Origin: Candidatus Omnitrophota bacterium
GTDB taxonomy: Bacteria > Omnitrophota > Gorgyraeia > Zapsychrales > JANLHA01
Direction of reading: 5' to 3'
Assembly (NCBI GenBank): GCA_023247795.1
Contig: JAHFFT010000006.1
Location: forward strand, 4,664-68,663
DNA: 64,000 nt
Positions 4,420-54,100 of the stretch are shown piece after piece. Under the pieces are notes generated by a model that saw nothing but the letters and a program-made list of their open reading frames with translations, searched no databases and was not told the origin of the DNA. The position numbers were made by a program, and so were the translations under genes. The number at the start of each line of letters is the position of its first letter. The first letter of the stretch is position 1.

Positions 4420-5289
4420 TTACGCCGGTGTTATCAGTTTAAGAAGCCGCTCAAGATCATCCGCGGAATAATACTCAATGACAATCTTTCCTCTTTTCTT
4501 TTGCGGCTGAATGCGGACCCTTGTTCCCAAAGCTTTTTGCAAATCTTCTTCGATGAACGTTAGATCATGATGTCGTTGTTGAATTTTTAATTCTCTTCTT
4601 TTGACCGCCTCGGGCTTTTTCGTGCGCACAAAATTTTCGACTTCGCGAACCGACATTCCCTTTTCAAGGATATAAAGAAAGGCCTCTCGCTGCTGCGCGA
4701 CATCAAGAATTCCTAAAAGTGCCCGGGCATGCCCCATGGAAAGCTCTCCTCGATAAACGCTTTTTTGGATTTCCTCTGGCAATTTCAATAATCTTATCGC
4801 ATTGGTGATCGTTGAGCCGTCCTTGCCTACCGATTTGGCAATGGCTTCATGGGTCATACCAAATTCCTGAATCAGCCGCTTAAAGGCCAAGGCTTCCTCA
4901 ATGGCATTGAGATCCTCCCTCTGAATGTTCTCAATCAACGCCAAGACAAAGGCCTTTTCATTTGAAACATTCTTGATAATCGCTGGAATTTTTTTCATTG
5001 CCGCTGCTTTTGCTGCCAGCAACCTTCGCTCGCCGGCCACAACCTCAAATCCGCCTTCGATTTCACGCAGCAAAAGCGGTTGTAAAATTCCATTTTCCTT
5101 GATGGATAAAATCAATTCATTGAGTTTGGTTTCATTATAATCGGTACGCGGCTGCAACGAATTTCTACGAATCTTATCCGTGTCAATGAGATGAACCTCT
5201 CCGTCCAAAATTTGTTTATCGCGAGTCCCCAATTCAGCCTTATCCGGGATTAGCGCTGACAATCCTTTTCCTAAAGCTCTTGATTCCAT
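4420..5289 (-). CDS. parB: chromosome partitioning protein ParB
   Basis: ParB box GERRLLAAK and HTH ...IAKSVGKDGSTITNAIRLLKLP. Adjacent to parA near the origin. Confidence 0.9.
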   Translation of the reverse strand: MESRALGKGLSALIPDKAELGTRDKQILDGEVHLIDTDKIRRNSLQPRTDYNETKLNELILSIKENGILQPLLLREIEGGFEVVAGERRLLAAKAAAMKKIPAIIKNVSNEKAFVLALIENIQREDLNAIEEALAFKRLIQEFGMTHEAIAKSVGKDGSTITNAIRLLKLPEEIQKSVYRGELSMGHARALLGILDVAQQREAFLYILEKGMSVREVENFVRTKKPEAVKRRELKIQQRHHDLTFIEEDLQKALGTRVRIQPQKKRGKIVIEYYSADDLERLLKLITPA

Positions 5290-5303: not shown

Positions 5304-6167
5304 TTATGCGTTATCGGTTTGTGATTTCATTTGTTCGGTTGGTTCGATTCCTTTTTCATTGGAAATATTTTTTATCCTGTTTAATTCCAATTGTTTACGA
5401 TCTTTCACCTGTTCTCCCAGCAATTCTTTTGCAAGTTCTTCGTACCTTCTTGCTCCGCTGCAAATCGGATCATATAACATAATTGGCTTTCCAAAGCTTG
5501 GCGCCTCACTCAATTTGATATTACGAGGAATAATGGTCTTATAAACTTTTTCCTTGAAATACCCCTTGATTTCATTGATGACCTCAGTTGTCAAATTGGT
5601 ACGAAAATCCGCCATGGTTAGTAAAACTCCTTCAATTTCTAAATCCGTATTCAAACCATCTTTGATCAAATTGATCGTATTCAATAATTGCGAAACACCC
5701 TCAAGCGCATAAAACTCACATTGGATTGGAATAATGATCGACTGGCTTGCAACCAAAGCGTTAAGAGTTAACAAACCCAGCGATGGCGGAGAATCAATGA
5801 AGATATAATCATATTGATCTTTTACCGATGAGAGGGCGCGCTTGAGCCGCGTTTCTCGTGAAAGGGCGCCGACCAATTCAATTTCAGCGCCGGTCAAATT
5901 GATATTGCAGGGAATGATATCGAGATTTTGATAAAAATTTTTTATTATTGCTTCCTCGACGGGAGATTTCTGAAGCAAGACGTCATAAATCGAAATTTTA
6001 ATCTCACCTTTGTTAACACCGGTGCCGCTCGTTGTGTTTCCTTGCGGATCCGTATCTATAACCAAAACCTTTTTATTTTGCTGAGCGACCGCAAATGACA
6101 GATTTACCGCTGTTGTTGTTTTGCCGGTCCCTCCTTTTTGATTACAAATTGAAATGATTCGCGCCAT
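5304..6167 (-). CDS. parA: chromosome partitioning ATPase ParA/Soj
   Basis: Deviant Walker A KGGTGKTTTAVNL and ParA/MinD fold. Confidence 0.9.
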   Translation of the reverse strand: MARIISICNQKGGTGKTTTAVNLSFAVAQQNKKVLVIDTDPQGNTTSGTGVNKGEIKISIYDVLLQKSPVEEAIIKNFYQNLDIIPCNINLTGAEIELVGALSRETRLKRALSSVKDQYDYIFIDSPPSLGLLTLNALVASQSIIIPIQCEFYALEGVSQLLNTINLIKDGLNTDLEIEGVLLTMADFRTNLTTEVINEIKGYFKEKVYKTIIPRNIKLSEAPSFGKPIMLYDPICSGARRYEELAKELLGEQVKDRKQLELNRIKNISNEKGIEPTEQMKSQTDNA

Positions 6168-6256
6168 AATGATTTAATTTTTTATCGCTATTCACGTGAA
6201 ACGCAAATTCTCAAAAGCCATTCTCTCCCATATAATTGCAAAAATCAACAACAATT

Positions 6257-6451
6257 TCAATTTTTAACAACAACTCTGATCTTGGCCGGCTTTGCTCCCT
6301 CCATCCCAAACAAACCTTTTTTCTCTTCGCAGACGACTTTAACTAAAATGTCTTCTCTAGATACCTTTAGAACCTCCAATGCTTTCTTAATGGCGTCTTC
6401 GACATTGAGGCCTTCGATTTCGATTGACTTCTTCTTTCTGTGCCTATCCAT
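6257..6451 (-). CDS. Jag/KhpB N-terminal-domain-only protein (64 aa)
   Basis: IEIEGLNVEDAIKKALEVLKV resembles the Jag_N domain. Overlaps the yidC 3' end by 8 nt, the usual yidC-jag position, but has no KH/R3H domains. Confidence 0.5.
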   Translation of the reverse strand: MDRHRKKKSIEIEGLNVEDAIKKALEVLKVSREDILVKVVCEEKKGLFGMEGAKPAKIRVVVKN

Positions 6452-8093
6452 TTATAACCACCTGCGGCTGTTTGGACATTCTCCACTGTGTCAACGTCGA
6501 CAGCAAATAAAACACCGTAAAGTACAAACACAATCCACTTGCGAATTTGTAAAAAATAAATCCAATAAATACTGGAAATATCGTCATCATCATTTTTTGT
6601 TGGGCGATTTGCGCCGGATCAGTAACGACCATGTTTCTTGCCGACATTTTTTGCTGAAAAAACATAATAAGCATCATTAGCAAAGGTAACAAATTAAGTT
6701 CATTCCCAATAATTGGAAGCATGTAGGGAAGTATGAATAATTGATCCGGCATCGATAAATCCTTAATCCAAAGAAATCCCGCCCCTTTAAAGGAAACTGA
6801 CCTCCATAGCACCTGATATAAACCAATAAAAATCGGCATTTGCAAAATCAGCGGTAAACAGCCTCCTATAGGGTTGATGCGATGCTCTTTGTACAAAGCC
6901 ATCATTTCTTGATTTAATTTTTGCGGATTTGTCTTGTATTTTTCCTTCAATTGAGTCAATTTTGGCTGCAAAGCCTGCATTTTTTTCATTGAAAGCATAC
7001 TCTTTTTTGTTAAAGGATACATGAGAAGATGCAACATTACGCTTACTGAAATGATACAAAACCCCCAACTAGGAACAATTTTATACAGGAAATGCATAAA
7101 TTTATATATAATTTTTGAAACGGCATCAAAAATTCCTATTCCAGAAAACGACATAATAGGTTCAAAGCCTTGATTATACTCTTTCAGTCGTTCGAGGATT
7201 TGCGGACCACAATAAATCGAATAATTTAAAGTGATTTTCCCTCCCGCAGGTATCTCAACTTTTTCACGTGCAAAAGCTAAATCCAATATGTTATCAGCAA
7301 CGTAATGAATTCTGTAATGACTTACTGGCTCCTTTGGGTTAACAATTAAACAGTAATAACGATCCCGAAATCCAAGCCAGTTGACTTCCCCCGAATCCTG
7401 CTTCTCATCCTTTTTAGAAAATCGAAAGGCGTTTCCTTTTCGTATCACACCACTGGCTAGACTAACTGAATATTCAAAAAGGGTGCGCTCTCGAGAATTG
7501 TCCATTCTGGAAATGTCCAATCTGTTATTGTCCATTCTGGTAATGTCCAATCTGGAAATGTCCAATCTGAATCCTTTTATGTGTAAATCAATCAGTTTGG
7601 ACATTTTTGATATGTTTTCGATTTCAATCTCAGATTGGACATTATAATCATCCGTCAAATGATACTTCTTAGATATTTTAATATCATTTTCTTGATACGA
7701 GTAGCTGATTTCTCTATTATCAACTGCTAGGTGATCTAAATGATATTCAACCGAATCATGACCATCCATTGTCAAAATTTCGGTTACAGGCAAACTTGCT
7801 TTATACTCACGCAAATAAATGGATTTGATCGAACCACCCAAATTAGTGAAATCGACGTCATACTTAGCGGTCTGTTCATGCTGGATTGTCTCGGGAGTTT
7901 TTGTAGATTTATCTGCCGCTGCCAACGCCGAATCGCTTTGTGTGACAGCCGTCGTTGATTTGTCTAAACTTTGGGAATTTTTCGGAAGAAAATCAGTAGT
8001 ATTTACGCGGGGTGTCGGCCTTGGCATTAATGTACTCCAAAGCAGTAAGACAAGGAAGGATAGTGTAAAAGCTAATATCAGCCGTTTTTCCAT
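6444..8093 (-). CDS. yidC: membrane protein insertase YidC (carries an in-frame repeat insertion)
   Basis: 549 aa. An N-terminal TM segment and periplasmic domain are followed by a C-terminal core with conserved insertase TM helices (...PLTKKSMLSMKKMQALQPKL...YKEHRINPIGGCLPLILQMPIFIGLYQVL...). Confidence 0.9.
   Translation of the reverse strand: MEKRLILAFTLSFLVLLLWSTLMPRPTPRVNTTDFLPKNSQSLDKSTTAVTQSDSALAAADKSTKTPETIQHEQTAKYDVDFTNLGGSIKSIYLREYKASLPVTEILTMDGHDSVEYHLDHLAVDNREISYSYQENDIKISKKYHLTDDYNVQSEIEIENISKMSKLIDLHIKGFRLDISRLDITRMDNNRLDISRMDNSRERTLFEYSVSLASGVIRKGNAFRFSKKDEKQDSGEVNWLGFRDRYYCLIVNPKEPVSHYRIHYVADNILDLAFAREKVEIPAGGKITLNYSIYCGPQILERLKEYNQGFEPIMSFSGIGIFDAVSKIIYKFMHFLYKIVPSWGFCIISVSVMLHLLMYPLTKKSMLSMKKMQALQPKLTQLKEKYKTNPQKLNQEMMALYKEHRINPIGGCLPLILQMPIFIGLYQVLWRSVSFKGAGFLWIKDLSMPDQLFILPYMLPIIGNELNLLPLLMMLIMFFQQKMSARNMVVTDPAQIAQQKMMMTIFPVFIGFIFYKFASGLCLYFTVFYLLSTLTQWRMSKQPQVVING
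7496..7645. repeat. in-frame minisatellite inside yidC: tandem units AGA(T/A)TGGACA(T/A)T, reverse complement AATGTCCA(A/T)TCTG
   Basis: Four tandem plus two dispersed copies. They encode RLDISRLDITRMDNNRLDISRMDN in YidC. The unit matches, in 12-13 of 13 positions, the CAGAATGGACATT motif that accompanies REP elements elsewhere in the window. Confidence 0.7.
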
Positions 8094-8217
8094 TATTTCA
8101 TTTGCTTTGTAGAAGTAGAAGCGACAGGCAAGTCGCTCTTAATACATGAAGTGTTTCTGCAGTCAGATCTTACAATATATCTCCTGGCCCGAGTGACATA
8201 TTCGTTGTCAGCAACCA

Positions 8218-8355
8218 CTATACAGTTAAGCGGTGCCGGCCTTTTGCTCGACGTCTCTTTAAGACTTCCCGGCCACCAGAAGCTGACATTCTTCGTCGAA
8301 AACCGTGTAATCTTTTGCCTTTTAAGTTGGATTTTGATTTGAGATGCTTCTTCAT
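8218..8355 (-). CDS. rpmH: 50S ribosomal protein L34
   Basis: Manual translation: [45 protein letters not shown] (45 aa). Not in the ORF track because it is under 60 aa. Confidence 0.85.
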
Positions 8356-14232: not shown

Positions 14233-14350
14233 AAGTAACAAGTTGCAGGTTGCAGGTTTCGGGCAAAAAATTTTGCGATAAAGTCCTTGTCACTTGTCAC
14301 TTGTGACTTGTAACATGAGACTTACTTGAGACCTGCAGCATGAGACTTGA
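14233..14350. repeat. intergenic repeat family C (AAGTAACAAGT...GTGACTTGTAAC...TGAGAC) with terminal dyad GTTGCAGGT/ACCTGCAGC
   Basis: Starts at the gyrB stop codon. Related copies at 17793, 23772, 23866 and 25753. Confidence 0.6.
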
Positions 14351-16901: not shown

Positions 16902-17058
16902 GACCATGCCGACTAGCCTGGTCAGGACACCCCGTCTTCGGCGGGGCAAGCGGGTTTGGCAGTGTCTTATCAATAAAAGCATTTTTGACCCCATCGTCTA
17001 GCCTGGTCAGGACACCCCGCCTTTGGCGGGGCAAGCGGGCTTGACAGTGTTCTATCAA
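16902..17058 (+). pseudogene. two tandem degenerate tRNA-Glu-like copies (5' half plus GC hairpin), period about 85 nt
   Basis: Each unit opens with GACC(C)CATCGTCTAGCCTGGTCAGGACAC, identical to the 5' half of the downstream tRNA-Glu. A CCCCG-loop-CGGGG hairpin and a conserved AT-rich spacer replace the anticodon and T arms. Neither unit has a 3' acceptor strand. Confidence 0.5.
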
Positions 17059-17071
17059 AAAAAGTATTTTC

Positions 17072-17145
17072 GACCCCATCGTCTAGCCTGGTCAGGACAC
17101 AAGCTTTTCAAGCTTGCAGCGCGGGTTCAAATCCCGCTGGGGTCG
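17072..17145 (+). tRNA. tRNA-Glu (anticodon TTC)
   Basis: GACCCCATCGTCTAGCCTGGTCAGGACACAAGCTTTTCAAGCTTGCAGCGCGGGTTCAAATCCCGCTGGGGTCG. Acceptor GACCCCA/TGGGGTC and T-arm GCGGGTTCAAATCCCGC. Confidence 0.85.
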
Positions 17146-17240
17146 CAAATATCAGGGCTTGAGTTAAAACTGACTTTTTGAGTTTCGGGCGGCGATAAGA
17201 TTAATTAACGCCGCTGGTATAAAAATATAAGGAAAGGGGG

Positions 17241-17612: not shown

Positions 17613-17792
17613 GAATCGATGTTTTTATCAAAATCATCAGTGATCAAGAGTTGAAGAACGTCGCCGAATCCACAAGAACGGGAGACGATGTTTTCGGGTA
17701 AATCTTACCAAAGGTAAGACGGGAAAATCTGCCAACCGCACCCTTAACTAATCCCGTAGGCGTAGGCAGATATTTTCGGGTCGGTCTCTGGA

Positions 17793-23775: not shown

Positions 23776-23938
23776 CAAGTCCCAAGCGACATGTCTCAAG
23801 TTGAGAATGACATGTGACTTGTAACTTGAGACGTGAGACTAAATTAACAGGGACAGCCCCCACTGGATAGTCCCAAGCGACATGTCCCAAGTTGAGAATG
23901 AGATGCGACTTGTAACTTGAGACTTGAGACAAGATTAA
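23772..23938. repeat. two tandem repeat-family-C units separated by a GGGACAGCCCCCACTGGATA REP-like segment
   Basis: AGTCCCAAGCGACATGTCTCAAGTTGAGAATGACATGTGACTTGTAACTTGAGACGTGAGACT appears twice, with about 90% identity between the two. Confidence 0.6.
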
Positions 23939-25717: not shown

Positions 25718-25835
25718 GGGGACAGTCCCTAAGGGGACAGCCCCCACTGGATATACAAGTCCCAAGCTGCAAGTTTCAAGTTGAAAATGACCTGTAACTT
25801 GTAACTTGAGACATGAGACTTGTGACATGAGACAT
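25718..25835. repeat. REP doublet (GGGGACAGTCCCT AA GGGGACAGCCCCC ACTGGATA) fused to a repeat-family-C unit
   Basis: Direct sequence match to the REPs at 35864 and 49986 and to the repeat-C copies. Confidence 0.6.
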
Positions 25836-35863: not shown

Positions 35864-35924
35864 AGGGGACAGTCCCCTTATACTAGGGGACAGTCCCCTA
35901 GGCATTAAATGTCCATTCTGAATT
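35864..35924. repeat. two REPs (AGGGGACAGTCCCCT) followed by AAATGTCCATTCTGAATT
   Basis: Inverted orientation of the CAGAATGGACATT-N-AGGGGACAGTCCCCT composite found at 49966, 50662 and 51121. Lies 10 bp upstream of the ORF starting at 35936. Confidence 0.7.
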
Positions 35925-35935
35925 AGGGATTTTTT

Positions 35936-37720
35936 ATGGGAGTTATTCATAAACTCAAACAAGAAGTTGTACAGTTCATTGTCCAAAAGAAGAAGGATCT
36001 CCCGCAGGTCAGCTGTCGAAAGATGGCGGATTTTGTCCATACCGCATTTGAATTAAATCTCTCTAAGTCGGCGATTAACAACATTTTACAGAGATCGACG
36101 TTAAGTAGTCCGGTGGGCAGGCGGCCACAAGACCCCGGCCGAAAAGAATCGGTTGTTCAACAGGGTGTTAAAGCCAAATCTTTTAAAATTCCCGATCAGA
36201 AGAAAATATTAGGGGGACAGTCCCCAAAAAGGGACTGTCCCCCTCCTGGTTTTCCTCCTGTTCCCCCGCTTCAACCGTCTAAGTCTCCTCTTCCTCCGGT
36301 CGCACAGAGTCAGCGTAAATTCAGTGTGAAAAGAGCCTCTTCATTGCAGCCAAAAGAGGGACTGTCCCCTAAAGGGGACAGTCCCCCTAAGCTACCAAAG
36401 ACGCTTTATGATCATATGGGCAGCATTTTTCTAAAGGCGGCAGAATGGGAGATTTCCGACGGGCCACTTTTGGGAAAAATACTAAAGGATCATCTGCCGG
36501 CCGGATTTTCTCAGCAAGAGCTGGAGCAGGCCGGGGAAGTGCTTTTATTTTTGCAAGTATTTGGGATTAAAAGACTTGAAGATTTTATTCATTACACAAA
36601 AGACGGATTATGGGCGATTAACGGTCTAAAAACCAAAATCCCATTTTTCAAGATCAATGATTTAGCACGATTTTTGAATACCGTTTCGGGGGTAAGAGCA
36701 CAGCTGCAAATACACATTTCACAATTAGTTACAAAAGCAGCCTATATCAAGGTGGTCTTTAAAGCCGGTAATTGCTTATGGGTAGATGCCCTGGGCGCCG
36801 GGCTGAGTTCTGCGAAGAGAAAAGGGCCCAATTTTTCGTCCATCAACCAGATCACCACAACAATGATCAATCAATGGTTAATGCCGCGTGAGCCGCTGAT
36901 TCTGGGTGCTGTTCAGGATGGCCAATCGCTTTATCATTTGGCGGCAGGCTTTGCTAATGACACGAATCGAAAATTACATAAGATCATGGCTTTTGGTTAT
37001 GACGATCAAGAGATCATTGCCTTTGATTCCTTCATTGACACAAAACGATCATTTCTCGTCGGACTATGGCCGTCGCAGGAGTTTTATCAGCAACTTTTTG
37101 GATCGCAAGATTTTGTTTATAAGAAAAATTTTGAAATGACCGATGGCCATAAGCAGGTTGCCTATGATGAAATGACCGTTAAAATCAAAGATCCGGTTGG
37201 GGAGTTACATCCCATTTCGTTAAGGGCGGTGGGGTTTGAAATGCCAGGGAACCAGCCGCAAATGGGCGTTATTTTAACCAATATGAGTGATAAGGAAATG
37301 ACAGCAGCGGGACTCATCAGTGCTTATGTTCAGCGCTGGCCCTGTTTTCAAGAATCGAAATCGCTACAAAATTTTCTGCAACCCAATGTCTCGGAAGAGT
37401 ATGTGTCTCAAGATGAAAATATTTCCAACGATTTATCCGAGGCCAATGATTTGCATATTGCACTTAACTATTTGAATCGCTACGGCCAAGAGGCCTTTTT
37501 TCCATCAGCATACGGCGATTTAGACCTATCATCAATGACATCAATATTTTACAACATAGCCGGATATTTACAGTGTACCAAAGAGCTGGTAAAAGTTGAA
37601 CTGATTATGCCAAGGGAAGATTATCCTTATCAAAATGATTTGGCTCTGGCGGTCAGGAAGGTCAATGAGCGCAATATCAGCGATTTTCAGGGAAGAAAAT
37701 TATTTTTGTCATGTTTATAA
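35936..37720 (+). CDS. 594-aa transposase-like protein (N-terminal HTH; C-terminal Y-x2-R-W...E...K like the IS4/IS1634 C1 motif) carrying two in-frame REP insertions
   Basis: REP doublets at 36212-36243 and 36358-36387 are translated as ...GGQSPKRDCPPPG... and ...KEGLSPKGDSPPK.... The YVQRWPCFQESK block resembles DDE-transposase C1. The family call is tentative. Confidence 0.35.
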   Translation: MGVIHKLKQEVVQFIVQKKKDLPQVSCRKMADFVHTAFELNLSKSAINNILQRSTLSSPVGRRPQDPGRKESVVQQGVKAKSFKIPDQKKILGGQSPKRDCPPPGFPPVPPLQPSKSPLPPVAQSQRKFSVKRASSLQPKEGLSPKGDSPPKLPKTLYDHMGSIFLKAAEWEISDGPLLGKILKDHLPAGFSQQELEQAGEVLLFLQVFGIKRLEDFIHYTKDGLWAINGLKTKIPFFKINDLARFLNTVSGVRAQLQIHISQLVTKAAYIKVVFKAGNCLWVDALGAGLSSAKRKGPNFSSINQITTTMINQWLMPREPLILGAVQDGQSLYHLAAGFANDTNRKLHKIMAFGYDDQEIIAFDSFIDTKRSFLVGLWPSQEFYQQLFGSQDFVYKKNFEMTDGHKQVAYDEMTVKIKDPVGELHPISLRAVGFEMPGNQPQMGVILTNMSDKEMTAAGLISAYVQRWPCFQESKSLQNFLQPNVSEEYVSQDENISNDLSEANDLHIALNYLNRYGQEAFFPSAYGDLDLSSMTSIFYNIAGYLQCTKELVKVELIMPREDYPYQNDLALAVRKVNERNISDFQGRKLFLSCL

Positions 37721-49965: not shown

Positions 49966-50000
49966 CAGAATGGACATTAATTTAAAGGGGACAGTCCCCT
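49966..50000. repeat. composite CAGAATGGACATT-N7-AGGGGACAGTCCCCT (REP)
   Basis: Exact motifs, 5 bp from the 3' end of the RAYT gene. Confidence 0.7.
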
Positions 50001-50005
50001 GTTAA

Positions 50006-50545
50006 TTATTCCTCTACTTCGTAAGAATCAAGAATTTGGAACCAGGAATAGGTGTCTTGATCTGTATAATCTTCAATGGGTTTGAGTGCTGAATTGATGC
50101 GTTTGTGTCCAGTGTGATAAGCCGCGCTCGACCACTCCCATTCCCAGGCTTTTTTTACTAGTTTTGCCTGTACCGGGTTACATTCTACATAACGGATAGC
50201 CGCCAAAAGATGATCTTCTTCCAGTAAGCACGAATAAAATCTTTCCTGCCAAAAATGTCCATTTAGATTACGTTTGCGATGCTGATCTTGAGCATAGCGC
50301 ATATGACAAACGCTAAACGCCTTTGCCAGGGAATCCTCTTTGTGGGGGATGACTATAAAGTGGACATGATTGCTCATAAGGCAATAGGCGAGGATGGACA
50401 TGGTGTATTTTTCGCTATATTCACAAATCCAAGAAAGGTATTTTAAATGATCGGCGTCATCAAAAAAGACCGTTTGTTGATAATTCCCCCTCTGGACGAC
50501 GTGATATGGGTAGTCTGGTATTACAATGCGTGCTGTTCGTGGCAT
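50006..50545 (-). CDS. REP-associated tyrosine transposase (RAYT; IS200/Y1 HUH family)
   Basis: HUH motif MSNHVHFIV; ...GHFWQERFYS...IRYVECNPVQAKLV...WEWSS... matches the RAYT C-terminal catalytic-Tyr region (compare E. coli YafM WQPRFW...NP...W.WSS). Flanked by REPs. Confidence 0.8.
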   Translation of the reverse strand: MPRTARIVIPDYPYHVVQRGNYQQTVFFDDADHLKYLSWICEYSEKYTMSILAYCLMSNHVHFIVIPHKEDSLAKAFSVCHMRYAQDQHRKRNLNGHFWQERFYSCLLEEDHLLAAIRYVECNPVQAKLVKKAWEWEWSSAAYHTGHKRINSALKPIEDYTDQDTYSWFQILDSYEVEE

Positions 50546-50661: not shown

Positions 50662-50717
50662 CAGAATGGACATTTAAAAATAGGGGACTGTCCCTATTAT
50701 TAAAAATGTCCATTCTG
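50662..50717. repeat. 56-bp perfect palindromic composite: CAGAATGGACATT / AGGGGACTGTCCCT / AATGTCCATTCTG
   Basis: The arms are exact reverse complements around a central REP. Lies upstream of the RAYT gene. Confidence 0.75.
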
Positions 50718-51120: not shown

Positions 51121-51156
51121 CAGAATGGACATTATATCAAAAGGGGACAGTCCCCT
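51121..51156. repeat. composite CAGAATGGACATT-N8-AGGGGACAGTCCCCT
   Basis: Exact motifs, 19 bp upstream of the giant ORF start codon. Confidence 0.7.
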
Positions 51157-51174
51157 AATTAACCGAGTATGACT

Positions 51175-54100
51175 ATGGACGAAAGCAGATTGGACATTAA
51201 AAATATAAGTACTACTAGAGGCAGTATTAAAAATTTTAATACTAATAGAGATAGTCTTTCGTCTATATTGCCGCATATTCTCCCAAAGGAAGAACCAAAA
51301 CCATTCAAAAGCGGGTTTAAGCATTGGATTCGTATCGTTGCCATGATCGTGATCGCGGTGTTTTTGCCGGAACAGATCAGCTGGGCGTTCAACTACAACC
51401 CAGCAGTTCTCTGGGGAGGGCCAAAGCAGGATTTGATGCACTTAGCCCAGCCCGCACCGGTTATGCCAACTCCGGCGCAAGTCCAAATTCCAGTTGTCCC
51501 TAGCGATGCCGAGATTTCTCAGCAGCTTTCGCAAAGCGTACACGATATGCTCGGCCGCATTGCTTATCTTGAAAACGCGCAAGTTCAATTCGACCTGCAA
51601 AACCCCAACGATCCAAACAAAAAGCCGCAATCATCAATTCAAATCAAACCAAAGAACGTTGTCACCGAACAAAGCATGATGGCCTATGTCGAGTGGCTGC
51701 GCCAGCCAGGGATTAAACCCCTCAACTGCGGTGTCTATGCTTTGCGGGATTTATTGGGAGCCAACGGATTGCAGGTGAGTTTGCAAGAGTTGTCATTAGC
51801 CACATTGATGGAGGACATCTTAAACGGCATTATCAAACCCGGAGATCCTAAACTCAAGACCTCACTTTACGCGATCGATAAAGTCGCTCAAGGTTATAAC
51901 CTGAATCTCAAGGCCGCAAAAGTCCTGCCGCAGGATGTCGTAAAACTCAAAACACCGTTTATCGCCAACCTTGATCCCGAACATTTTGTTACGGTCACGT
52001 TGATTGAGCAGGATAAGGTGAGTTATTTTGATGTCGGCCGTCCGACCATCCTGGCTAAAGACGAATTCATCAAGCAGGCCAATGGGTTTGTCCTAGCGCC
52101 GGATATGGAAAAGCAAACAATCGAATACGCCTTAGTCTCTGATTCGATGAAGGCCTTTGTCTGGGGCAGCCAGTGGGTGAGGATGAAGGATGATTTGCCC
52201 GGCTTGATTGATGATGGAGATATGTGGGACGAGATATATGTCGAGATCGCTATTGAACTTATTGAGGCTTACTTTTTTGGGCCGGCCGTGGCTGTTATGG
52301 CATATGGAGCCTCTGATCTGGCAAGTACTTTGACTGAAATATGTGTGATGAAGAATGTTTGCGGTGAAAATGACACGTTTATTTTTAATTTCATTTTTAC
52401 CACGGTGCTGATGGCCGCTGGAATGTCTATGGGGGATTTCGCAACGGGAGCGGAAAACGGAGTCCTGAAAGAGGGTGCTAAAGGTGGGCTTAAAGAGGGC
52501 GTTAAAGATGGGACTAAAGAGGGAGCTAAAAAGGGGCTTGAAGATACCGCCAAAAGTACGGCGCCGTCCGCGACTGGTGAAGTCGCGGCAACAGCACCAG
52601 CCATCGAACCTGCCGCTGCAGGCGCGTCCCCAACCATTGGTTCAAGATTGGTCGATTCAATCAAAACCGGCACTCAAAATTTTTATAATGAAATGAAAAT
52701 TTCGTTGACCGACTTTGGCAATAAAGTCGTTGGATTTTTTAAAGGGATCGGCGAGTTAGCACAAAAAGGTTTTAATTTTGTAGTGGGTGGTGGGGCGGAC
52801 AAGGCCCCCCAAGCGGCAGGGACGGCAGGACAAGCAACCAATAATTTGGGAGCTGCAAAAGAGCTTGCCAAAACCATGCCGGCGAAGTTCGATATGGCGA
52901 AGTCCTTAGATCGTTTATTTTCCGCCCAGGCCGTAAAGGCATTCTTTGTTGGAGGCATCAAAGCCCTGCCGAAAGCAATTGTCAGCGCGTACGTTAAACA
53001 GGAAGTGTATAAGATCGTGGATAGGAATATTTCCGAAGACATGAACCCCGCTATCCGTCAGGCGTTGGTGGGTGTTGTTTCGTCCATCGGCGGTGAGCTT
53101 TTGTTGGCGGCCGGCATCAAAGGGCTCGGCGCTGCTTTATCGGAGGTATCACCGGAAATGAATAACGCGCTCAGCAAATTATTCAACATGGGCACATACC
53201 AAAGCGAAGAGGACGCGCAGAAAAAGGCCGACGAAGTAGTTGACAATGCTAAAGCAGACACCATCAAAGCCGCTGATAAGACTGTTGAAGGTCAGAATTT
53301 GACAGCAGAGCAAAAAGAAGGAGTGCGAAATGCGGCACTCAAAGCCGATGAATATAAATTCAACGCGATTGAACGAACGGTTTATCAGTCGGAACTTGAC
53401 CGTATTAAGTCAGATAAAAATTATAGTCGTGATAATGACGCCTTTCATGCCAGCACATTTGTCGATGAGTTTAAAGTGATTGGCAAAACCATTGGGCCGC
53501 GTTTGGCGGGTGCCGCGGTCGCTGCTGGTCTGCGTTATCTCGCTGATAAAAATTGGGGTGATGCCGACGCCAAGTCGCAGGTTTCACAAATGATCGGTGA
53601 GATCGGCCAAGCCGTGGGCGGAATTTTATACGGAATTGCCATCAGGCAAGATTCGGGTTACACGAAGGAAGAGATCCATCAGGATAAGGATGGCACGAAG
53701 GAAACAAATTCAGATTATGATAAATATTATCGTGAGAATAAAATCACCGGAAAGCGGGAGTATGTTGCTGAAGGAGATGGCAAGACGATCTACAATCCGG
53801 AATATCCCGGCAGCGAGAAGGGAAAACATTATCTTTTGAGCGACCGAACGTATGGGGCCATGTTATACGATGCTCTTACCAGAGGGGCTGTTGGTCTGTT
53901 GGTCGCGCACGGCCTGGACAATTACGAAAAGCGAAATGTCGATGTGGACGCGAATGGCGATCAAAACCGTTACCAACTGGTTAAAGGACGTGCTGCCATA
54001 TTGGGTGGGCTGATTTTGATTGATACCATCGTGACGGACATTAATAAGTGGGCTGGTATCGATAACCCCGAGCGCTATTTAAAAGACGAAGGGGTCGGGA

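Follow-up and report, generated by a model that had tools for sequence, protein, structure and literature searches.

A coding tandem repeat in an Omnitrophota yidC gene that resembles a REP flank and was probably expanded from native sequence

In described systems of repetitive extragenic palindromic (REP) sequences, REP doublets forming hairpins (REPINs) and tyrosine transposases associated with REPs (RAYTs), a short palindrome is preceded by a conserved 5' flank, and a single Y1 HUH transposase is encoded between inverted copies (Nunvar 2010; Bertels and Rainey 2011; PMC3116915, PMC3337134); a long palindrome of the form a-palindrome-a^c has also been described for them (PMC3337134). The 64,000-nucleotide stretch of Candidatus Omnitrophota bacterium DNA analysed here (hereafter the window) holds a system with all of these traits, together with a tandem array inside yidC, the gene for a housekeeping insertase, in which the repeated unit resembles the 5' flank of the REP-type elements. 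The array is nevertheless not a REP or REPIN copy: it is coding, has no palindrome, stands where the ancestral gene already had the sequence, and is matched in relatives that have no palindrome at the locus.

The second described class against which the array can be set is that of in-frame coding minisatellites, or variable-number tandem repeats, made by slippage. With these the yidC array shares units that follow one another head to tail and measure a multiple of three bases, a unit drawn from a pre-existing short direct repeat, a surface-exposed and length-tolerant setting and, to judge from a comparison of proteins, a copy number that differs between related lineages. It differs from them in that its units have diverged (at 0-4 of 15 positions), that no polymorphism is seen between assemblies, and that its host is a housekeeping insertase, not a surface antigen. 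The array qualifies as a slippage-generated in-frame coding tandem repeat and is another instance of an already known type. We conclude that it is very probably the outcome of slipped-strand expansion of yidC's own sequence in a length-tolerant loop of the periplasmic P1 domain, and not inserted DNA from a REP or a miniature inverted-repeat transposable element (MITE).

The features of the gene on which this conclusion turns are as follows.

6444..8093, minus strand: yidC coding sequence, 549 aa (first transmembrane segment TM1, periplasmic P1 beta-sandwich, insertase core), from Pfam, AlphaFold, Foldseek and ortholog starts
7494..7568, minus strand: five in-frame 15-bp units, RLDIS RLDIT RMDNN RLDIS RMDNS, residues R176-S200, from the codon register
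7593..7605, plus strand: inverted copy CAGTTTGGACATT, on the gene strand A ATG TCC AAA CTG = K163-M-S-K-L167
7631..7643, plus strand: exact inverted copy CAGATTGGACATT, on the gene strand N151-V-Q-S-E

The product combines a 60KD_IMP core (Pfam, 1.8e-54), a YidC_periplas domain (4.8e-14) and the YidC fold, which places it in the YidC/Oxa1 family with P1. Its AlphaFold model (predicted local distance difference test score, pLDDT, 87.5) matches E. coli YidC in Foldseek (6al2/3wvf, E 6.5e-28, TM 0.72-0.75), the PDB sequence match stands at 1.3e-45, and the start MEKRL is the start found in orthologs; the database entry P0001 sets the start of YidC 22 codons too late by comparison with them. An antisense open reading frame (ORF) at 7381-7647 faces conserved codons of yidC and was for that reason judged spurious. 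An Rfam search gave no match at the yidC locus.

The five units of the array, in order AGATTGGACATTTCC, AGATTGGACATTACC, AGAATGGACAATAAC, AGATTGGACATTTCC and AGAATGGACAATTCT, run head to tail and keep one open frame. Units 1 and 4 are identical, and the remaining pairs differ at 1-4 of 15 positions (adjacent units likewise at 1-4). Tandem Repeats Finder places the array at 7495-7569 with a period of 15, 5.0 copies and 83% matches (score 101), or alternatively with a period of 30 and 2.5 copies (score 115). The motif concerned, here called the 13-mer, is of the type CAGA(A/T)TGGACA(A/T)T, and its pattern forms can also be written CAGAWTGGACAWT and TTCAGAWTGGACATT; the window is expected to contain 0.02 copies of the 12-mer AGAWTGGACAWT and has 12, six in yidC and six elsewhere. 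The original prediction had rightly placed an in-frame repeat in the periplasmic domain of YidC and had quoted its peptide repeat correctly. The repeats are real; the tandem copies, given as four, number five, and the two copies described as nearby lie on the opposite strand.

Metagenome assembly can go wrong at short tandem repeats, and the array could in principle be a mis-joined or collapsed repeat. However, in a separate Logan assembly from the same population (L001, run SRR14366766) all of a 3,777-nt stretch that takes in the array is identical, and an ENA assembly encodes an identical YidC protein. The array is moreover imperfect and, at 75 nt, shorter than a read, and a related array of four units is present in the closest relative (P0002). 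An artefact is unlikely because the independent assembly is identical across the array, and we regard a mis-joined or collapsed repeat as having next to no chance of being the explanation.

The closest YidC relative, P0002 (78% identity), carries four units, RLDIN-RMDNI-RLDIN-RMDNS, compared as protein only; identity is no higher than 52% in the remaining orthologs, none of which has an array. At the array site, the motif [LI][DE][MI]SxL[DN] runs through most of 108 Omnitrophota YidCs, with LDISRLD verbatim in several, and is followed by a variable stretch and then by RD(K/R)SL. Codons were aligned for ten orthologs with DNA. In the unexpanded gene of P0003 the codons at the site are TTC TCT TTG GAC ATT TCC AGA TTG GAC AAT AAG, in P0008 they are TTC AGT TTG GAC ATT TCC AGT TTG GAC AAA, and P0010, fetched separately, is nearly the same as P0008, the two together giving TTC AGT TTG GAC (A/G)TT TCC AGT TTG GAC AAA. 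Unexpanded genes whose proteins share about 50% identity with the window's YidC thus hold about 1.6 repeat units, including the 12-mer AGATTGGACAAT, at homologous codons, and the first ~1.6 units of the array correspond to the ancestral LDISRLDN codons. The ancestral TTGGACATTTCCAGATTGGACAAT, seen in P0003, P0008 and P0010, shows that the unit comes from a pre-existing local short direct repeat. The only extra DNA relative to the orthologs consists of the tandem unit copies. No REP palindrome was found in the nine ortholog loci scanned, and the palindrome GGGACWGTCCC, with at most one mismatch, has no match within 6444-8093.

The ancestral site is itself a 15-bp direct quasi-repeat, TTGGACATTTCCAGA followed by TTGGACAAT, which codes for L-D-I-S-R-L-D-N. 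Direct quasi-repeats are a classic substrate for slipped-strand mispairing, and a first duplication would have arisen by replication misalignment between the two ancestral half-repeats. In later steps a 30-bp double unit (RLDIx-RMDNx) would have been duplicated, to judge from the 30-bp period and from the way in which RLDIx units alternate with RMDNx units, so as to give the 15-bp unit its five copies in the window lineage and four in P0002. Since the unit is a multiple of three, changes in copy number alter the length of the loop and never the reading frame. The units appear to have diverged since, and because adjacent units differ, slippage was probably slow: an old array that turns over slowly would fit better than a hypermutable switch. 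Rapid contingency-type variation is known from perfect repeats, and there is no sign of it here, as the units have diverged and two assemblies of the window population show an identical number of units. The P0002 units are more like one another than like the units of the window, which suggests, at the level of protein sequence, that turnover of the array continued after the two lineages split. P0030 carries a separate FRLDN-FRLDN duplication at a neighbouring conserved motif just upstream, and because this duplication is independent, the P1 stretch around the array has been duplicated more than once.

The two inverted copies have different histories. That at 7593, with two mismatches to the REP 13-mer, lies on M-S-K, an ancestral YidC motif kept in most of the 108 orthologs. 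The copy at 7631, a member of the inverted pairs I3 and I4 (14 nt, 100% complementary), is restricted to the window and P0002 lineage; other orthologs have different residues and codons at the position and no indel. Nor is there an indel relative to orthologs in the DNA between the inverted copies, which codes for the conserved strand MSKLIDLHIKGF. The most likely origin of the exact copy at 7631-7643 is a short-patch template switch involving inverted repeats close by, a process documented as homogenising the arms of inverted repeats in coding DNA (PMC7202029, PMC8604942). As in those quasipalindrome template-switch mutations, an imperfect inverted repeat would have been perfected through several substitutions at once and with no indel; at 7631-7643, unlike there, the switch itself is inferred only.

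The surroundings of the array would tolerate changes in length. In the AlphaFold model a long beta-strand (166-178) is followed by the array, folded as short helices and loop, with pLDDT below 50 at 187-197. The segment from a conserved F/Y to RD spans 12-26 residues in orthologs, with modes of 14 and 19; the window has 25 residues here and P0002 has 20. As modelled, the array therefore lengthens a floppy periplasmic P1 loop within the natural length range of the family. That a change in copy number alters this loop, as had been predicted, is supported, with five units here and, in the protein comparison, four in P0002. The P1 domain of E. coli YidC has been reported to be non-essential for function (PMC4252904), which fits tolerance of changes in loop length. 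The window's protein shares with E. coli P1 (PDB 3BLC, 3BS6, 3WVF, 6AL2) the beta-supersandwich fold and the overall YidC architecture, but its P1 sequence has diverged so far that phmmer aligns nothing before residue 234, and the comparison there is one of fold.

Why, then, does the unit resemble a REP flank? The REP-type features of the window, and one further copy of the motif, are these.

35866..35920, minus strand: REP-type element made up of the 13-mer, N8 and two palindromes, immediately upstream of ORF 35936-37720; conserved in the metagenome-assembled genome (MAG) nzgw298
49966..50001, plus strand: REP-type element, 13-mer CAGAATGGACATT + N8 + GGGGACAGTCCCC, at the 3' end of the RAYT-like gene
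50006..50545, minus strand: Y1 transposase, RAYT-like, 179 aa, carrying H-V-H and RYVECNP motifs (Pfam Y1_Tnp 1.4e-14; motifs read in the translation)
50662..50717, no strand assigned: 56-nt long palindrome, 13-mer - GGGGACTGTCCC - reverse-complement 13-mer, of the form a-palindrome-a^c
51121..51156, plus strand: REP-type element, 13-mer + N9 + GGGGACAGTCCCC, upstream of a giant ORF
51186..51198, plus strand: lone CAGATTGGACATT with no palindrome, codons 7-11 (S-R-L-D-I) of the giant ORF opening at 51166

The window thus has a REP/RAYT-like system of the ordinary sort, in which the 13-mer serves as the conserved 5' flank. Its elements, close to the RAYT-like gene, have the layout CAGAATGGACATT + N8-9 + GGGGACWGTCCCC; the five REP-type copies of the 13-mer outside yidC, at 35908 (-), 49966 (+), 50662 (+), 50705 (-) and 51121 (+), are exactly CAGAATGGACATT, followed by N8-9 and then by GGGGACWGTCCC(C). 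The inverted copies at 49966 (+) and 50705 (-) bracket the ORF at 50006-50545, as expected of a RAYT. The best NCBIfam match of that ORF is REP_Tyr_transpos at 64.8 bits, under the 80-bit cut-off of the model, with IS200 at 26 bits. The palindrome GGGACWGTCCC (at most one mismatch) has 13 matches in the window against 0.47 expected. A genome collection, which excludes the window's own genome, was scanned with the pattern 13-mer + N7-10 + GGGGAC and gave 13 matches, against about 17 predicted by our own arithmetic from uniform composition; three are meaningful, all from the Omnitrophota MAG nzgw298, and the other ten are at the calculated chance level. The composite is thus common to the window and this related MAG, one of whose loci is orthologous to that at 35.9 kb in the window (90.6% nucleotide identity in the adjacent ORF). 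Scans of viral contigs with both composite patterns gave no matches.

The original prediction held that a 13-mer associated with a REP or MITE had been inserted into yidC and had then expanded as a coding microsatellite. The likeness itself was correctly reported, at 12-13 of 13 positions (12/13 against the REP 5' flank, and 15/16 for unit 1 with its flank); the yidC copies stand in both orientations within 150 nt, and palindromes of the same genome lie in frame in ORF 35936-37720, with an in-frame copy-number difference relative to a related genome. Against insertion, unexpanded orthologs at ~50% identity carry the unit at homologous codons, where it is native; the residues it codes for are the family's own conserved motifs, LD(I/M)SxLD and MSK; compared with orthologs, the gene has gained nothing beyond the tandem units; and neither yidC nor any of the ortholog loci scanned has a palindrome. 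None of the yidC copies is an exact match to the REP consensus. The array thus has neither the palindromic core of a REP or REPIN nor an insertion relative to the orthologous site, and it is not extragenic, a trait that is weak alone given the palindromes inside ORF 35936-37720. Orthologs sharing the peptide with no DNA likeness to the flank had been expected to speak against the proposal; the orthologs share both peptide and DNA motif, which means that the motif in yidC predates the split from relatives with no palindrome near the gene. We consider insertion of REP or MITE DNA very improbable.

With expansion of native sequence as the preferred account, the likeness to the REP flank would be a chance near-match of the ancestral sequence, brought closer by one Ser-to-Arg substitution and then multiplied five-fold by tandem copying. 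Ancestral sequences differ from the 16-mer flank consensus TTCAGAATGGACATTT at two positions (P0008 type) to four (P0003 type), and a codon change from AGT to AGA yields the 15/16 match of unit 1. By chance a window of this size is expected to hold 2.1 matches to the 13-mer with at most two mismatches, and 1.37 matches to the 16-mer with at most three. Coincidence followed by amplification is the most likely account of the likeness.

Several observations weigh against this account. Unit 1 taken with its flank, TTCAGATTGGACATTT, departs from the REP flank consensus at only one of 16 positions, a closer match than chance alone would often produce. Two distant relatives, L016 and L024, have the exact 13-mer (extended to a 15-mer in the middle copy) in non-coding DNA upstream of parB. 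Around M-S-K and L-D-x-S, conservation at synonymous sites is unusually high. The exact inverted copy of 13-14 nt at 7631 arose in the very lineage in which the array expanded. Finally, the proposed history of slippage draws on a protein comparison with P0002.

The second and third of these raise the possibility that CAGA(A/T)TGGACA(A/T)T is a functional cis-element of this Omnitrophota clade, whether a site for a DNA- or RNA-binding protein, a recognition flank of the RAYT or one arm of a hairpin. If so, yidC would carry an ancient instance under selection at the nucleotide level, the expansion would have multiplied the sites five-fold, and further instances would be found in the 5' flanks of the REPs and in the leader of parB in L016 and L024; yidC and the REP flank would in that case be truly linked, through a shared motif and not through an insertion. 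L016 and L024 represent two related genomes with YidC about 50% identical to that of the window. In L016 (5790-5855) and L024 (4573-4637), AATGTCCAATCTG, CAGATTGGACATT and CAGATTGGACAAT lie at the parA end, just upstream of the parB Shine-Dalgarno sequence, in the arrangement AATGTCCAATCTG-N-CAGATTGGACATT-N-CAGATTGGACAAT; both genomes have the 13-mers in exact form, with indels in the spacers between them. No GGGGAC palindrome lies near this cluster in either locus, and the intergenic cluster is found in one lineage only, which speaks against a clade-wide element. Outside the cluster, there are about five independent non-homologous near-matches in nine loci, against about 2.3 expected (our own estimate, scaled from 2.1 per 64 kb).

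Synonymous conservation is locally elevated at both yidC sites. The Ser of M-S-K (M164-S165-K166, 7596-7604) is TCC in all ten orthologs, though TCC makes up only ~20% of the Ser codons in these genes. At the LDxS position the codon is NCC in nine of ten orthologs, the next Leu is always YTG where present, and the Asp is GAC in seven of eight. Taken site by site, none of 300 permutations reaches the observed conservation; the gene-wide maximum, however, is reached in 105-156 of 300 shuffles and is therefore not significant.

As for a hairpin, the yidC mRNA segment folds at -47.2 kcal/mol (z = -4.4), the segment also folds well in several orthologs, and the arm pairs, though they differ in their central bases, are each self-consistent (AAA/TTT in L016 yidC, AAT/ATT in the L016 intergenic cluster, ATT/AAT in the long REP palindrome). 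A conserved hairpin joining MSK and LDIS in the mRNA was considered. The window, P0008 and P0021 all have it in strong form, but RNAalifold finds no conserved long hairpin across 11 orthologs, the named helix is 69% paired, and covariation does not exceed that in shuffles (213/500); these results do not establish a conserved hairpin.

Known binding sites offer no better identity for the motif, which is neither a DnaA box nor a parS. A DnaA box was rejected since, by our own comparison, the motif shares only 5-6 of nine positions with TTATCCACA; ordinary DnaA-box-like sequences, TGTGTATAA and TGTGGAAT, occur upstream of dnaA. Nor is the motif supported as a new parS. The window and L016/L024 do have only degenerate parS sites upstream of parA, whereas near-perfect parS (one or two sites) is present at eight of ten ortholog loci; the window's site, at ~6190-6206 (minus strand) upstream of parA (5304-6167), is GCGTTTCACGTGAATAG, with four mismatches. 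Yet the helix-turn-helix (HTH) of ParB is canonical in L016 and L024, and the window shares no change with them; the HTH of its own ParB (parB 4420-5289) reads KDGST, against KDRST in all ten orthologs compared. Taken together, a functional cis-element seems to us unlikely, and slippage of native sequence is retained as the explanation of the array.

The general idea behind the original prediction, in-frame variation of a REP-derived repeat, is nevertheless realised in the window, at ORF 35936-37720 and not at yidC. Four GGGGACWGTCCCC palindromes lie in frame within this ORF (plus strand), at 36214-36241 and 36358-36385, where they code for a Pro/Ser-rich linker (GGQSPKRDCPP, EGLSPKGDSPP). The product (594 aa) has no Pfam or NCBIfam match. 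Its ortholog in nzgw298 (reverse complement of L007; 589 aa, 90.6% nucleotide identity) keeps the frame open with one palindrome fewer, the two genes differing by an in-frame indel of 18 nt, which accounts for that palindrome, and by an indel of 6 nt. This is a genuine change in the copy number of REP palindromes within a coding region.

Some other features of the window may be recorded. Between dnaA and yidC, rpmH (45 aa, read by eye) lies at ~8216-8353 on the minus strand, and the interval from rpmH to yidC is too short for rnpA or yidD, unlike some orthologous loci. The giant ORF on the plus strand runs from 51166 beyond 64000, with more than 4,278 codons and no stop before it leaves the window; it has an N-terminal transmembrane segment (read by eye) and a Peptidase_C39 match at aa 188-312. 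Giant genes have been reported in Omnitrophota (bioRxiv 10.1101/2023.11.21.568195; PMC10066038). An 85-bp tandem repeat (16913-17100, 2.2 copies, 91% matches) runs into tRNA-Glu (17072-17146), and its unit seems by eye to hold a partial copy of the 5' half of the tRNA; downstream of tRNA-Glu is a c-di-AMP riboswitch (Rfam RF00379, 47.4 bits; 17652-17776, plus strand). Direct repeats of heptamer type (CTTGTCA, GACTTGA, TGAGACA, with higher-order units of 14 and 25 nt) occupy intergenic DNA at 14286-14348, 23907-23930 and 25793-25835, the last adjoining REP palindromes at 25719 and 25734.

Of the observations made here, two leads could matter more than the array: the cluster of 13-mers upstream of parB, taken with the synonymous conservation in yidC, and the REP palindromes in frame in another gene. 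The yidC array matters little in itself, as a case of a housekeeping insertase that tolerates an in-frame change of loop length made by slippage. What it illustrates is that the likeness of a coding repeat to the flank of a mobile element can be an ancestral near-match multiplied by tandem copying, and that codon-level comparison with orthologs settles the origin of such a repeat.

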